48,044 bases of DNA from Sphingobium sp. (GCA_050176605.1 JBFXHW010000001.1:1-48044); one strand, 5' to 3'. Counted from the first letter of the stretch, positions 6,227 to 13,979 are shown. Numbers and translations are program-made. The notes: a model not told the origin generated them from the sequence alone.

Positions 6227-7536
<1,310 letters not shown>

Positions 7537-7555
<19 letters not shown>

Positions 7556-9024
7556 TCTCCGGGCGGCGGCGCGGGCTGTTGTGCATCGGCGGACATCTTT
7601 CCATCCTGACCGCGCAGCTTGACCCGCCGCTCCACCACGAACTTTCCGACCAATCGCGCAAGACCGGCCGCCTCGGATGAGAGCGCCCGGGCGGCGGCAT
7701 TGGATTCCTCAACCATCGCGGCATTCTGCTGCGTCGTCATGTCCATCTCGGCAATGCTGACGCTGACCTGCTGCAGGCCGATCGCCTGCTCTTCCGCGAA
7801 GGACGCGATTTCGCGCGCCTGAACGGTCGCGTCGCTGACCTGATCGATGATCTGCTCCAGCGCCTGACCGGTCCTTCCGACCAGATCGACGCCCTTGTCG
7901 ACATCGCCCCCGGACTTGCTAATCAGCTCCTTGATATCCTTTGCCGATTCGGATGTCCGATGCGCCAGCGCACGGACCTCGGCCGCGACGACGGCGAACC
8001 CCTTACCCGCATCCCCCGCGCGCGCCGCCTCGACACCGGCATTGAGCGCCAGCAGATTCGTCTGAAAGGCGATCGCATCGATCACGTCGATGATCTTGGC
8101 TATTTCGGACGAGGATTGCTTGATCTTGTCCATCGCCGTGACGGCATCGCGAACAATCTCGCCGGCGGTGGATGCCTCGCGATAGACCAGCGAAACGCTC
8201 CCATCCACCTGCTTGGCGCTTTTGGCGGTGGACTGCATGCCGCGCACCATGGTCTGCATCACTTCGGCGGCTTCGGTCAGCGCCGCTGCCTGATGCTCTG
8301 TGCGAGTAGCGAGATCGCCCGCGGCCGAGCTGATCTCCGTTGCTCCGCAGTTGATGTTGTTGGCCGCCTCGGCCATCTGGCCGACCACCTGGCTCGTGCG
8401 CATCCGCATCATATGGAAATCCTGCGCGATCTGACCATAGGCGGCGGGCAGATCCTCAAGCTTCGCGCGAAGATCGCCGCCAGCCATTTGCGCGAGCGCA
8501 CCGCCGAGCGAGGAAATCACGCGCTGACGGGCTTTCTCCTCTTCCTCAAAATAGGCGGAAATCGCCACCTGCATGTCGATCAACGCCGTCTTGACCAGCG
8601 TCGCTATCATGTCGGCACGGGCCTGCGGGGTCAGCCTGCCCACAAGATCGCCTGAAAATACCGAGCCGATCAGCTCTTCCAGCACCAGCGCATATCCGCC
8701 GATATACAATTCCGGCGGCAGGCCGACCTTCGCGTGCACGCTTCCAATCTTCTGCGACCTCTCCTTTGCCGCCTGGTCGAACGCCCCGGAGTAGAGGTCG
8801 AGCCAATGATCGAATTGCGCGTCTGCAGCCTTGTCACGCTGCCCTTGGGTCGGCAGCAGGCCAGAGGCGACCGGGTGCTTGCCGATGCGTTCATAAAGTC
8901 TTGCAAGCGACTTTCGTCCGGCCCGCTTTATCAGGGCGCGAATACGCGGAAAATGCCGATAATTTTGTTCGGTCAGCCCGACAATGGGTTCGACCGCTGC
9001 GGTCCCGTTCTTTTTCTCGTTCAT
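7537..9024 (-). CDS. Soluble globin-coupled methyl-accepting chemotaxis protein (HemAT-like)
   Basis: N-terminal sensor globin (AQFDHW; IGSVHAKVGL with the proximal His; YIGGY), no TM helix, MCP signalling motif IAFQTNLLALNAGVEAARAG. Confidence 0.9.
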
Positions 9025-9203: not shown

Positions 9204-11165
9204 TCAGAGGACGAGATCGCCCACGCCGGTCAGATGGGCGTTCTGAACATTGATCTGAAAGTCGGCCTTTCCGTCGCCATCGACATCGCCCATTACATAG
9301 GACGAATGAACCCGCGCATTATAGGCGATGACCAGCTCGCCCGCCGTGCCGCTGAAGCTGCTGACGAGGGTGAAGGCATCGTCCGAACCGCCCGCGATCG
9401 CATCGATCCCCGAAACGTCGATCTTGTCGCCTTGCGCCGAGGAGAAGTCCTTGATGAAATCGGCCGAAGCCTTGGTCGAGTCGGCGATATCGGCGAAGAC
9501 GAAGATGTCCGCACCCTTGCCGCCGACGAGGCCATCGCGACCCAGACCACCCTGCAGCACGTCGTTGCCGTCGCCACCCAGAATATAGTCGTCGCCATCG
9601 CCACCGATCAGCGAATCATTGCCCTTGCCGCCGTCGATACGGTCGTTGCCCGCACCGCCGAACACCTGATCGTCGCCATCTCCGGCACGGACATTGTCCT
9701 TCCCCGAACCGGCGTAGATGATGTCGTTGCCGGCATAGCCCATGAAGGTTTCATCGGCATAGCTTCCGCGCAATATGTCATCCAGCTCCGTGCCCGTCGT
9801 GGTCGGATCGTCAACGAACATGGCGAGCAACTGTCCCATTTCCACCGTGGCGGGGTCGCCGGACGAGGCGTGCACCTGCGCATCGAGCAGATAGGCACGG
9901 GTTGTCGCGCTGCCCAGAAGCGAGGTGACGTCGATGATGCCGGAGCTTTCCTCGTCCTGGGTGATGAAGCCGGCCGCGCCCGGACCGAACAGCGCGGGGT
10001 CGAACCCGGCAACCTGGTTCAGCGTATCGCTGGCGATGTCATACTCCCAGACCTTGGCGATGTAGCTCTGGTTGCCCGGATCTTCCTGCAGGATCACCTT
10101 CCCGTTCGCGACCGTGAGGTTGTCGAACATGTGCTGGCCTTCCGATCCGTCGAGCACCGCCGTGATCGTGCCGCCCGCTTCCGGGTTGGTGATGTCGTTG
10201 AACGTCGCCTGATAGAGGCGGCTGTTGCCGTTGAAGCTGTTGGTCGTCGTGAAGTAGAGGACATTGGGATTGTCCGGATCCCATGCGCTGTCTTCCGGGC
10301 GCAGGAAGCTCGTGACCCCCTTCGCCTCGCTGTCGGCGTCGATAGCGGCACCGGTCATGTCCGAAACGTCGCCGGTGGCGCCGATCGCCTCCAGCGTGAA
10401 AGTCCCGCCGACAGCCGTGGCATCGGTCTCGTCGGTCATGCCCGCGACCTTGATGCCATAGAAAAGGCCGTTGGTAAGGCCAGCCATGTCGATGTCGCTG
10501 CCGGTCGACTGTTTGCTGCCGACATAGATGTAGACCTGGCCGTTGGTGCCGTCGTCCGTCGCGGCGACAATCGTCTTGGCCTGGGCGAAGGGGTTGGCCG
10601 TCACATTCTCATAAGCCAGGTTGCCGAGGAACGGCAGCTCATAGGCATTGCCCATATTGGCACCGCTGACGATCGTACCGACCGCGCGGCCTTCCGTGCC
10701 GCTCTCCTCTCCGGTCAGGTAGATGCGGGCGCTGGTGCCGAGGCCCGTTGTCGGATCGTAAAAGGCCGAAGGCGCGGCGAGATCGCCCGAGCAGAAACGG
10801 CTGAACGCGGTCGTGCCCGTTACATAGGTGTCGTTCACATCGTCCCAGAGGTTCAGTGTCTGCATCGCATCGTCGCCCGAAACGACGGCAAGCGTGCTCT
10901 TGTCGATCACCAGCCGGTCAATATAAGCGCCGATCGAACCGTGATCATGCACCGTGCCGACTGCATTGTTGAATTCGTGATTGACGATCACGGAGAGAGT
11001 TCCGTCGCCATTGTCGAACGCGCCAATGCCGTCGGGAATGCCCCCGAACACACCGCTCGTGCTGCCCGGGAGCGTATCGCCCACCGAGATGATCGAGGTG
11101 AAACGGACATTGGGTTCGGCGGCGAGAAGATAGGGCGAAAGGGAAGAAGAAGGTCCTGTGGTCAT
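9204..11165 (-). CDS. PhoX/DUF839-like phosphatase with C-terminal RTX calcium-binding repeats (probable type I secretion substrate)
   Basis: PhoX-like motifs VNHE, RFCSG, TGEE, YENV, RPED, FDNL, QED, ESSGIID; no N-terminal signal; GGxGxD nonapeptides and a serralysin-like tail (DFSSAQGDKIDVSGIDA, GDVDGDGKADF). Confidence 0.7.
   Translation of the reverse strand: MTTGPSSSLSPYLLAAEPNVRFTSIISVGDTLPGSTSGVFGGIPDGIGAFDNGDGTLSVIVNHEFNNAVGTVHDHGSIGAYIDRLVIDKSTLAVVSGDDAMQTLNLWDDVNDTYVTGTTAFSRFCSGDLAAPSAFYDPTTGLGTSARIYLTGEESGTEGRAVGTIVSGANMGNAYELPFLGNLAYENVTANPFAQAKTIVAATDDGTNGQVYIYVGSKQSTGSDIDMAGLTNGLFYGIKVAGMTDETDATAVGGTFTLEAIGATGDVSDMTGAAIDADSEAKGVTSFLRPEDSAWDPDNPNVLYFTTTNSFNGNSRLYQATFNDITNPEAGGTITAVLDGSEGQHMFDNLTVANGKVILQEDPGNQSYIAKVWEYDIASDTLNQVAGFDPALFGPGAAGFITQDEESSGIIDVTSLLGSATTRAYLLDAQVHASSGDPATVEMGQLLAMFVDDPTTTGTELDDILRGSYADETFMGYAGNDIIYAGSGKDNVRAGDGDDQVFGGAGNDRIDGGKGNDSLIGGDGDDYILGGDGNDVLQGGLGRDGLVGGKGADIFVFADIADSTKASADFIKDFSSAQGDKIDVSGIDAIAGGSDDAFTLVSSFSGTAGELVIAYNARVHSSYVMGDVDGDGKADFQINVQNAHLTGVGDLVL
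9495..9794 (-). repeat. RTX (GGxGxDxxx) nonapeptide repeat array
   Basis: About 9 to 11 tandem units, for example GGAGNDRID, GGKGNDSLI, GGDGDDYIL, GGDGNDVLQ, GGLGRDGLV. Confidence 0.9.
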
Positions 11166-11428
11166 GATGGCATCCCTGTGCTGAAGAAAGGCGGATGCCT
11201 GCTAGCGCGAGCGCGTGACGTCCCCATTATGGATCGATTGCGAATTGGCGACAGTTTCGCGATGTCACTGTAACAATATGGCGGGGCAGGGCGCGTTCCG
11301 CGCAAAGCGGTGCCTTTCGCAGGGATAGCGCCGCAACAGGCATTTGCCTTGGTTTCCTTGCCGGTTACCAAATTTCAAGCCTTTGGACTTATGCCCTCCG
11401 CAAAACAGGACAATCCAAAGGAATTGCC

Positions 11429-13297
11429 GTGCCCAAGAGTTTGACCATTTCGGCAAAGATGCTGACCGCCTTCGCGGCGCTGCTGGCTCTCGTGGCCGCG
11501 ATCGGCGTGTTTGCGATGATGAAGATCGGAGAGGTGAATTCGCTGTCGAGCGAGATGCGGTCGCGCACGCTGCCCGCCACGCAACTGATCGGCGATATTC
11601 ATGCCTACACGTCGCAATACCGGATTCAGCAGAGCGGCCACATCTCGGCGCCTACTCCCGAGGCCAAGGCCAAGGCAGAAAAGATGCTGAAGAACGCGGG
11701 TGGCGCCATATCTGGCATGCTGGACGATTATGAGCCCCTGCTCAAAAGCAGCGAGCAGAAGGCGCTGTTTGCCGATCTGAAGACAAACTGGGCGCAATAT
11801 CAGAATCTCACCGCTCAGATGGTCGCGCTTTCGGACGCGAACGATCCGGCCGCGCTGGACATGTTCAACGGCGAGGCGCTCGACATGTTCTATACGGTAG
11901 AGGACAGCATTCTTCAGCTGATGGACCTCAACCAGAAGGGCGGACAGGAACTGACCGCCCAGAGCGAGAAAATCTATGCAGAATCTCGCAAGATGTTGCT
12001 CGCCGCGATCGGCCTCGGCCTGGTCGTTACGATCCTCCTGACCGCCCTCCTGATGCAAACGGTCGCAAAGCCAATCAAGCGGATGGCCGGTTCGGTAAGC
12101 CGTCTGGTCGACGGCGACCTCTCTGTCGAGGTCCCCGGCATGAACCGCAGGGATGAGCTGGGCAGCCTTGCCCGGGCGCTGGACAGCTTCAAGGCGCTGT
12201 TCGCTGCCGACAAGGAGCGGGCGGAAGCCGAGGCCGTGCGCGCCCGCGAGACCGAGTTGACGATTGAAGCTATAGGTAGCGGCCTTTCCGCGCTCGCCCA
12301 GGGTAATCTCACCTATAGCGTCAGCGACGACGCAACCGGACCGCTGGCCAAGCTGCATACCGACTATAACGAGGCGGTATCGCATTTGCGGCAGGCGCTG
12401 GCCGAGATCGTGGACGGGTGCAATACGATCAAGAACGGCACGAACGAGATCGCGCAGGCTTCGTCGGATCTTTCACTCCGCACGGAACGCCAGGCCGAAT
12501 CGCTGGCCCACACATCCAAGACGCTCGGCGAGTTCACCGATTCGGTGAAGGTAGCGGCGGACAATGCGCATCAGACGAGCAGCCGTCTGGCGGTTGCCCG
12601 CGCCTCGGCCGAGAAGGTCGATGAAACCGCCAAGCAGGCAGTCGTCGCGATGCGCAATATCGAGGCATCGTCGAAGGAGATGACGGAGATCATCACCACC
12701 ATCGACGGTCTGGCCTTCCAGACCAACCTTCTGGCGCTCAATGCGGGCGTCGAGGCTGCACGTGCCGGCGCATCGGGCGCGGGCTTCGCGGTCGTCGCGA
12801 CCGAAGTCCGGCATCTGGCCCAGCGTTCGGCCGAAGCGGCCAATTCCATCCGTCAGCTGGTGGCAACCTCGTCGGCCCAGATCAACGATGGCGTATCGCT
12901 TGTGGAGAACAGCGGCGAGGCGCTGCGCCAGATCGTCACCGAGGTAACCGAGGTTTCCGACCTGATGGACGGGATCGCCAAGGCGGCCGGGCGTCAGGCC
13001 AGCGGCCTTTCCGAAATCTCCGAGATGGTTACGGCCATGGACACCACCACGCAGCAGAACGCCGCGATGGTGGAGGAGAGCACGGCGAGCTCGCGCAACC
13101 TCAACACCGAAACCGAACGTCTGGTCGAACAGCTCTCCTTCTTCGAGATCGGCCGCCCGGCCGGCACTTTCGGATATCCCGAGGACGGGATTGCGGGCGA
13201 GAGCGAGCGGCACGCGCCATACCGGAAGGCCGCAGCGCCCGCGAGCCATGGCAACCTTGCACTCAGCATCGAGGAGGATGACTGGGAGGAGTTCTGA
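11429..13297 (+). CDS. Membrane methyl-accepting chemotaxis protein (four-helix-bundle sensor, HAMP, signalling domain, C-terminal pentapeptide)
   Basis: Two TM helices around a periplasmic helical domain, HAMP motif RRDELGSLARAL, FQTNLLALNAGVEAARAG, C-terminal DWEEF (NWETF-type CheR/CheB tether). GTG start. Confidence 0.93.
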   Translation: MPKSLTISAKMLTAFAALLALVAAIGVFAMMKIGEVNSLSSEMRSRTLPATQLIGDIHAYTSQYRIQQSGHISAPTPEAKAKAEKMLKNAGGAISGMLDDYEPLLKSSEQKALFADLKTNWAQYQNLTAQMVALSDANDPAALDMFNGEALDMFYTVEDSILQLMDLNQKGGQELTAQSEKIYAESRKMLLAAIGLGLVVTILLTALLMQTVAKPIKRMAGSVSRLVDGDLSVEVPGMNRRDELGSLARALDSFKALFAADKERAEAEAVRARETELTIEAIGSGLSALAQGNLTYSVSDDATGPLAKLHTDYNEAVSHLRQALAEIVDGCNTIKNGTNEIAQASSDLSLRTERQAESLAHTSKTLGEFTDSVKVAADNAHQTSSRLAVARASAEKVDETAKQAVVAMRNIEASSKEMTEIITTIDGLAFQTNLLALNAGVEAARAGASGAGFAVVATEVRHLAQRSAEAANSIRQLVATSSAQINDGVSLVENSGEALRQIVTEVTEVSDLMDGIAKAAGRQASGLSEISEMVTAMDTTTQQNAAMVEESTASSRNLNTETERLVEQLSFFEIGRPAGTFGYPEDGIAGESERHAPYRKAAAPASHGNLALSIEEDDWEEF

Positions 13298-13328
13298 CCC
13301 CCGGCATCGTGCGAACCTGTCCGTTTAC

Positions 13329-13360
13329 AGGCCCGGCGTCAGACGATGCCGGGCCTTTTC
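13329..13360 (+). terminator. Intrinsic terminator after the MCP gene
   Basis: AGGCCCGGCGTC-agac-GATGCCGGGCCT followed by TTT. Confidence 0.7.
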
Positions 13361-13423
13361 CGTTGCGGTGCCCCAGATGGCCCGTCGGCCGTATCGCGCT
13401 CGAAACTCGACAAAAAACAGAGA

Positions 13424-13450
13424 TAAATCAAAAATTTACCATGGCGATAA
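13424..13450 (+). promoter_or_regulatory. Sigma28 (FliA)-type promoter upstream of the TonB-domain gene
   Basis: TAAA-N15-GGCGATAA, 11 of 12 matches to TAAA-N15-GCCGATAA, preceded by an A-rich tract. Confidence 0.65.
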
Positions 13451-13535
13451 ACCGTCTCTTATCCGCTGCGGGCTATCAGGATGATCACCGGTCTATCTTC
13501 ATTTCTGGATGAAGTCTGAGGAAGGAATAAGAAAA

Positions 13536-13886
13536 ATGTTCAAGAATATCGCCGGCAAGGCACTGGTCGCCGCCGCCGTCGCCACCGTCGCCGTCTCTCC
13601 CGCGTTCGCGCAGCCCGCCGCCTGGCAGCAGGCTGTCGCCCGTCAGATCGCTTCCAAGCAGACCTATCCCCGTGCGGCGCAGATGCGCGGCGACGAGGGC
13701 ACCGTCAAGGTGAAGGTCTTTGTCGGCGCCGACGGTTCGGTACAGAAAACCGAGATGGTCACGCCGTCCGGTTCGTCGGTCCTCGACCGCGAAGCACTTG
13801 CCCTGCCGGCGAAGGTCGGCAACCTGCCCGCTCCTCCGGGCGGCGCGACGGCCATCGTGCTGCCGCTGACCTATAAGCTGATGTAA
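13536..13886 (+). CDS. Exported stand-alone TonB C-terminal domain protein (116 aa)
   Basis: Signal peptide ending PAFA-Q; YPRAAQMRGDEGTVKVKVFVGADGSV...SGSSVLDREAL is the TonB C-terminal pattern; no proline-rich linker. Confidence 0.85.
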   Translation: MFKNIAGKALVAAAVATVAVSPAFAQPAAWQQAVARQIASKQTYPRAAQMRGDEGTVKVKVFVGADGSVQKTEMVTPSGSSVLDREALALPAKVGNLPAPPGGATAIVLPLTYKLM

Positions 13887-13914: not shown

Positions 13915-13979
13915 CGGTCCGCCTCTCTCCGCATTCATGGCCCGCCGGGGTCGCGGAAAGAGGCGGACCGAATTTTATT
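13915..13979 (+). terminator. Long stem-loop, possible terminator after the TonB-domain gene
   Basis: CGGTCCGCCTCTCTCCGC (13915-13932) pairs 17/18 with GCGGAAAGAGGCGGACCG (13953-13970); AATTTTATT follows. Confidence 0.55.

Follow-up and report, generated by a model that had tools for sequence, protein, structure and literature searches.

What is a TonB C-terminal domain doing on its own, directly behind a chemoreceptor gene? The question is raised by contig C1 of a 3.04-Mb genome that is 90.7% complete and whose nearest homologues are Sphingobium-like; this contig, 48,044 nt long, is the whole stretch of DNA analysed here (the window). On it, a gene for a methyl-accepting chemotaxis protein (MCP) is followed after 238 nt by a 116-aa open reading frame that consists of a signal peptide and a TonB C-terminal domain (CTD). 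A first-pass annotation had proposed that the product is a periplasmic adaptor between TonB-dependent transporters (TBDTs) and the MCP, expressed from a sigma28 promoter. The CTD gene does lie directly downstream of the MCP, and the features that bear on the question are as follows.

11350 to 11370, + strand: conserved element before the MCP, TGGTTTCC-N5-GGTTACCA, found by eye; it resembles a CtrA half site, its putative function
11429 to 13297, + strand: MCP, a 622-aa transmembrane chemoreceptor with 4HB sensor, HAMP, MCP signalling domain and C-terminal DWEEF tail (Pfam)
11519 to 11998, + strand: periplasmic 4HB sensor, MCP residues 31-190 (AF2 model, pLDDT 95)
13329 to 13356, + strand: terminator-like hairpin between the MCP and CTD genes (-25.7 kcal/mol, z -5.8)
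13424 to 13450, + strand: promoter element with an 11/12 sigma28 match, whose conserved part, T(T/A)AA-N7-TT(T/A)ACCAT, is CtrA-like (motif scan, upstream alignment)
13536 to 13886, + strand: CTD open reading frame
13536 to 13610, + strand: signal peptide, likely cleavable, residues 1-25, AFA-Q (AxA-like site in orthologues)
13611 to 13886, + strand: mature stand-alone TonB C-terminal domain, residues 26-116 (Pfam, NCBIfam, AF2 model, fold searches)
13671 to 13691, + strand: alpha-I helix (RAAQMRG, residues 46-52), predicted to form the patch that binds the MCP (complex model and Met50 pattern)
13683 to 13685, + strand: Met50 codon of the CTD gene
13915 to 13970, + strand: likely terminator 3' of the CTD gene, a hairpin followed by a T-rich run (-43.4 kcal/mol, z -6.1)

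The receptor carries the Pfam domains 4HB_MCP_1, HAMP and MCPsignal, and its tail is kept as DW(S/A/E)EF-like among orthologues. The closest solved fold to its sensor is that of Vc1313, or MCP-DRK (TM 0.88 at 17% identity; HMM E 1.2e-7). Because the hairpin at 13329-13356 separates the two genes, the CTD probably forms its own transcription unit in this Sphingobium genome. Two neighbours on the minus strand deserve mention: a 653-aa protein (9204-11165) in which a weak PhoX-like domain accompanies RTX calcium repeats and a C-terminal domain of the serralysin type, similar to an ORF found near the MCP-CTD pair in several close loci, and a second chemoreceptor, a soluble, HemAT-like protoglobin-MCP (7537-9024).

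The CTD reading frame starts with MFKNIAGKALVAAAVATVAVSPAFA-Q and has a purine-rich ribosome site at 13520-13527; an alternative ATG at 13509 would give 125 aa, and homologues are about 114-116 aa long and align from Met1. The first-pass reading of a signal peptide joined to a TonB domain was borne out by Pfam TonB_C on residues 41-115 (E 2.1e-13) and by TIGR01352 of NCBIfam (E 2.4e-16). All 13 PDB sequence matches are TonB or HasB, the H. pylori TonB-CTD matches at E 1.4e-12, and the YP motif, the alpha-I helix and the last beta-strand are kept. By fold, the AF2 model (pLDDT 83) matches TonB-CTDs, with TolA-CTDs matching nearly as well. A helix beginning near Trp30 directly abuts the signal, so that there is no Pro-rich linker, as had been noted; a family search matched 172 proteins of comparable size, and the length is 112-124 aa at 81 of 81 orthologous loci. 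An AxA-like site precedes the conserved Trp in 79 of these 81 orthologues, and a His lies within the hydrophobic stretch of the signal in 1 of 81. TonB energy transducers have an uncleaved N-terminal anchor with a conserved His. Judged from these sequence features, the product is likely a cleaved, soluble periplasmic domain. Other unusual TonB_C arrangements turned up alongside: one more short TonB_C-like ORF of this genome that looks secreted (G000:C222:2760-3284), secreted-looking proteins of about 230 aa with two tandem CTDs and no linker (P0123-P0125, P0127, P0128, P0133, P0135, P0136), a 708-aa protein that joins a pair of TonB_C domains to an outer-membrane efflux (OEP) domain (P0198), and five TonB_C repeats in 560 aa (P0121).

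Is the neighbourhood of receptor and domain more than an accident of this contig? A scan of species genomes gave 108 relatives, and among the best 80 taken for locus comparison an orthologous MCP lies directly upstream in 66 (65 recognized by tblastn; in L015 the MCP tail and a genome match identify it). By common flank genes these 66 loci fall into 9 groups, 6 of them with at least two loci, and even the commonest flank gene, pyrF, occurs in only 18 of the 66. In 22 of 64 loci, just 39-70 nt separate the two genes (two negative values, due to frame breaks, were excluded), which suggests operons. In an evenly drawn sample of 301 family genomes (sensor E < 1e-59, CTD family E < 1e-28), the 4HB sensor occurs in 8, all 8 with a CTD gene about 2 kb away, and the CTD family in 26. 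Since related genomes do not count as independent cases, these figures exceed the number of separate events. A search among longer proteins at E 1e-12, a weak test, turned up no fusion of CTD and MCP. The gene pair is real and conserved, and the linkage of short TonB-domain genes to MCPs, for which a neighbourhood survey had been proposed, is borne out by that survey (66/80 loci; 8/8 genomes with the sensor).

At 14 of the 80 loci the CTD is kept in a genome that has neither the 4HB MCP (best match 29% identity) nor the second MCP type described below; 5-14 other MCPs are present in each of the five such genomes tested. These 14 loci likely reflect two losses, one in a Novosphingobium clade of 13 and one in a Sphingobium, L057 being counted as independent on account of its different genus and flanks; a quick CTD tree built on 93 columns does not by itself force two. 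In the 301-genome sample, G007, G048 and G063 likewise have a CTD with neither the 4HB nor the second MCP found. One MCP-less, Novosphingobium-like locus (L059) has a full-length TonB_C protein (6598-7341) after the short CTD gene.

We modelled the mature CTD with two copies of the sensor, using a 64-row alignment, alongside three controls. The complex reached an ipSAE of 0.77, and the best control 0.01. That mark is attained by 116 of 157 solved complexes, as well as by 2 of 215 mismatched pairs; it is a rough guide here given our own alignment and the two sensor copies, and ipSAE expresses model confidence, not binding. At least 88% of contacts agree between runs, with partner pLDDT at least 90. 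In the model, the alpha-I helix of the CTD lies across the sensor dimer, on a site to which one subunit supplies helices 1-2 and the other helix 4. The CTD contributes R46, A47, Q49, M50, R51, G52, S81, V82, R85 and L115, which meet D56, Y60, Q63, K85, M86, N89, A90, G92, A93 and M97 of one subunit and Y155, E158, D159, L162 and Q163 of the other; the last strand of the CTD is intact and stays outside the interface. The invariant sensor residues Q63, Y155, E158 and D159 fall within the modelled interface; others, such as His58, lie outside it. Sensor interface residues are more conserved than other sensor residues (0.78 versus 0.58), those of the CTD barely more than its other residues (0.81 versus 0.78). 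The matches of the fold search contain no solved CTD-chemoreceptor complex.

Met50, the central interface residue, makes the lowest-error contacts in the model, and its distribution follows the receptor. Of the MCP-linked copies, 67 of 67 have Met at position 50; although Met50 formed part of one search pattern, a pattern without it also finds 51 of the 66 linked loci. The MCP-less copies have Ala, Ser or Glu in 14 of 14 cases and Met in none, and no other of the 26 invariant CTD residues is lost in all 14. TonB of P. aeruginosa also has Ala at this position, like those MCP-less copies that carry Ala50. Met50 is kept in 7 of 7 genomes found by profile, six of which probably overlap the first set, and G048, where neither MCP was found, has Ala. 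Contrary to the pattern, Met50 is present in G063, where no such MCP was found. Together, model and pairing make the CTD a probable physical partner of the MCP, and we hold this with some confidence: the direct interaction, so far undescribed, is predicted with good computational support. Of the proposed periplasmic adaptor, the link to the MCP has strong support from synteny (66/80), co-occurrence, an ipSAE of 0.77 and the loss of Met50 with the MCP. The MCP-less copies also remain under purifying selection (dN/dS about 0.10, against 0.06 in linked ones), which implies that the CTD has a second job, one that needs neither the 4HB MCP nor Met50.

More distant CTDs keep company with other receptors. 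One of these, a second MCP type with an HBM-like sensor and a length of about 720 aa, occurs in 17 of the 301 family genomes and is accompanied by a CTD in 16; conversely, 15 of the 18 CTD-bearing genomes besides the 8 with the 4HB sensor hold it. The HBM-like MCP profile was built from 10 of the 17 genomes, and of the 7 held out, five gave strong CTD matches; the match in G110 is weak and short, and G185 has none. At L103, L105, L106 and L107 this MCP immediately precedes the CTD, several other loci have it no more than a few kb off, and none of the 301 sampled genomes has both it and the 4HB MCP. Position 50 of the accompanying CTDs is mostly Ile, Val or Leu. Outside the family, 401 alphaproteobacterial genomes yielded 3 short signal-plus-CTD genes, 2 of them tail-to-tail with a third, NIT-like MCP. 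The same arrangement recurs in 3 of 10 metagenome loci of the clade to which these genes belong, two of which are probably lineages already counted; the order-level searches for this clade covered only 2 genomes each. The tail-to-tail order seen in several of the distant pairs is compatible with co-regulation as well. By sequence the three sensor types are not clearly related (hhalign probability 4.9% for 4HB against HBM-like). Among these loci we also observed a short CTD gene between an sdhB-like gene and fliF-fliG(-fliN), with an HBM-like MCP about 3-4 kb away (L092-L095), two tandem short CTD genes in genome G010 (L101, 4977-5330 and 5407-5790), and loci where a short CTD gene and a TonB-dependent receptor gene are transcribed divergently (L109, L110, L155-L157).

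Under either regulator suggested by its promoter, CtrA or sigma28, the CTD gene is tied to motility. The sigma28 consensus is TAAA-N15-GCCGATAA, and the reported 11/12 match, TAAA-N15-GGCGATAA at 13424-13450, is there; it is the sole match in the window, 0 of 100 shuffles match, and the genome has fliA (TIGR02479, 219 bits, cut-off 189.6). Conservation tells against sigma28, however. Among the 14 closest CTD upstream regions, the -10 core GCCG is retained in 6, 3, 8 and 7, whereas the spacer block TT.ACCAT is retained in 12-14 and T.AA is also among the best-kept positions. We therefore down-weighted sigma28 as the conserved control element; CtrA fits better. CtrA motifs comprise a full site, TTAA-N7-TTAA, or a TTAACCAT variant (PMC6180460, in part). 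The CtrA-like block of the CTD promoter is TTTACCAT (13435-13442), and the site in the window, TAAA-N7-TTTACCAT, has 2 mismatches in 12. Across 57 CTD upstream regions, at most two mismatches to TTAA-N7-TTAACCAT were found in 16 (0.3 expected) and at most two to the sigma28 consensus in 5 (0.2 expected).

A perfect CtrA site precedes a cheA-like gene elsewhere in the genome. The best ctrA matches are two pieces on separate contigs, covering profile positions 1-138 (truncated by a contig end) and 158-224, each below the whole-protein cut-off. The element before the MCP (11350-11370) recurs in most close MCP orthologues, and its TTACC in many Novosphingobium too, as judged by eye. From these upstream motifs, CtrA control of the CTD gene seems probable to us and the case for sigma28 control weak: the motif of the first-pass claim stands, and with fliA in the genome sigma28-driven expression is possible but poorly supported. 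Of the two flagellin genes, one has TAAA-N15-GCCGTTAT (motif scan) and the other TAAA-N15-TCCGTTCT (by eye), both unlike GGCGATAA, and at one flagellin promoter (G000:C104, upstream of 7100) TTAACCAT is followed directly by TAAA-N15-GCCGTTAT, which shows that a CtrA-like site can lie immediately next to a sigma28-like one here. The eight best sigma28-like matches in the genome have, by crude ORF calls, no evident motility gene downstream besides the CTD locus.

What would such a partner convey? Crystal structures of TonB bound to transporters show alpha-I turned towards the plug and the Ton box paired with the last strand (PMC6118199, in part). The modelled MCP site is on this helix and overlaps the transporter face, and binding to MCP and transporter would thus likely be mutually exclusive; with a second job for the CTD as well, a switch between partners is the reading we favour. 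The likely secreted, unanchored CTD would dock through alpha-I across the periplasmic 4HB dimer, as in the model; ligand-loaded TBDTs, by exposing their Ton boxes, would draw it off the receptor; and its release would change CheA activity, such that transporter loading steers chemotaxis. Our confidence in this whole chain, from docking on the chemoreceptor to the switch and its effect on swimming, falls somewhat below even. That Ton-box exposure is the signal read by the pair, with transporters competing for the CTD, we put forward a little more tentatively. More speculative again, though possible, is a free CTD messenger titrated by Ton boxes, through which one receptor would report on dozens of transporters, with three sensor types, across Alphaproteobacteria. 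The genome has 30 TBDT matches above cut-off, and none of TBDT, ExbB or ExbD matches on the CTD contig, which agrees with the earlier remark that no exbBD or transporter lies nearby. A TBDT gene neighbours the CTD sporadically (L008, L015, L018, L109/110, L155-157), and since these genomes are rich in TBDTs, CTD-TBDT linkage is weak.

Other explanations share part of this evidence. The CTD might bind the MCP and use its free beta-edge to sense some other strand (the TolB N-terminus, unfolded outer-membrane proteins or periplasmic peptides), giving envelope-state or peptide taxis. All the evidence for CTD-MCP binding serves this reading equally, TolA-CTDs tie with TonB-CTDs in fold searches (9ddz, Z 11.2, rmsd 2.6, 83 aligned), including one solved with a TolB peptide (6s3w, Z 10.1, rmsd 3.5, 91 aligned), and the FusB CTD has been solved with ferredoxin (9hi3). 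The CTD is nonetheless TonB-type by sequence in all 13 PDB matches, and the scanned flank genes contain no tol/pal neighbours; we consider this reading unlikely. Less likely still is a constitutive accessory subunit that stabilizes or tunes the receptor dimer while the 4HB sensor binds a small molecule directly. Its model would be Vc1313, which binds D-Arg/D-Lys inside the monomer (PMC10390336, in part), and invariant residues away from the interface, such as His58, could form a pocket; it leaves unexplained why the CTD stays under selection in MCP-less genomes and why it pairs with different sensor types.

The remaining alternatives deny the partnership. Both genes may simply belong to a motile-cell (CtrA) programme, the CTD capping Ton boxes and so damping phage entry or uptake that depends on TonB. 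Soluble TonB fragments do inhibit uptake, CtrA-like elements precede both genes, and distant CTDs lie beside different MCPs, often tail-to-tail, or beside fliF-fliG-fliN. A passing complex model with clean controls, the specific loss of Met50 and the keeping of the pair through 9 flank groups are, however, not what this account predicts, and we rate it as improbable as the accessory subunit. That the CTD is a short but ordinary membrane-anchored TonB, working with ExbBD encoded elsewhere, is very improbable. ExbB and ExbD are indeed present, on other contigs only, and homologues bear the database name 'energy transducer TonB'; against this stand the missing linker, the AxA site (79/81) with a His in just 1/81, the absence of exbB/exbD from the scanned flank genes of CTD loci, and contig C393, which already encodes a conventional TonB with His-bearing anchor, Pro-rich linker and an adjacent exbB-like gene.

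The inputs of most chemoreceptors are unknown, and to our knowledge their protein partners are ABC-type solute-binding proteins (SBPs). A TonB-CTD partner, if true, would be a new class, and an undescribed route by which cell-envelope signals feed into swimming behaviour in many sphingomonad bacteria. If Ton-box exposure is what is read, TBDT-rich bacteria could, at the outer membrane, sense scarce or bulky nutrients without a receptor for each. In the literature searched, mostly freely accessible papers, we found no description of a soluble TonB-CTD with an MCP.

Set against known systems, the CTD shares its sequence family (PF03544, TIGR01352) and fold with the energy transducers TonB, HasB and FusB, but by anchor, linker or linkage it is not one of them: it lacks the anchor His, the Pro-rich linker and exbBD linkage, its signal is likely cleaved, and it is paired with a chemoreceptor, with Met50 specific to the linked copies. 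Similar to the proposed arrangement are MBP-Tar, DppA-Tap, GBP-Trg, XylFII-LytS and TorT-TorS, in which a periplasmic protein acts on a mono- or bimodular 4HB sensor, MBP contacting both Tar subunits as the CTD does in our model (PMC8050422, in part). There, however, the partner has the SBP fold, whereas here it is a 91-aa TonB-CTD with no known small-molecule site, and for that reason we do not count the system among SBP-stimulated receptors; genes for chemoreceptor SBPs mostly lie by transporters, that of the CTD by its receptor, and 'TonB' occurs 0 times in the main text of the 2021 review of these receptors (PMC8050422, in part). Vibrio cholerae MCP-DRK, the closest solved sensor, likewise co-evolves with a linked gene, but it binds D-Arg/D-Lys directly as a monomer and the linked gene encodes a racemase (PMC10390336, in part). 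FecA-FecR-FecI, the TBDT cell-surface signalling system, reports transporter loading across the periplasm (PMC11658791, in part), as the CTD would; it does so through an N-terminal signalling domain, an anti-sigma factor and energized TonB, and its output is transcription, whereas that of the CTD and its receptor would be chemotaxis.
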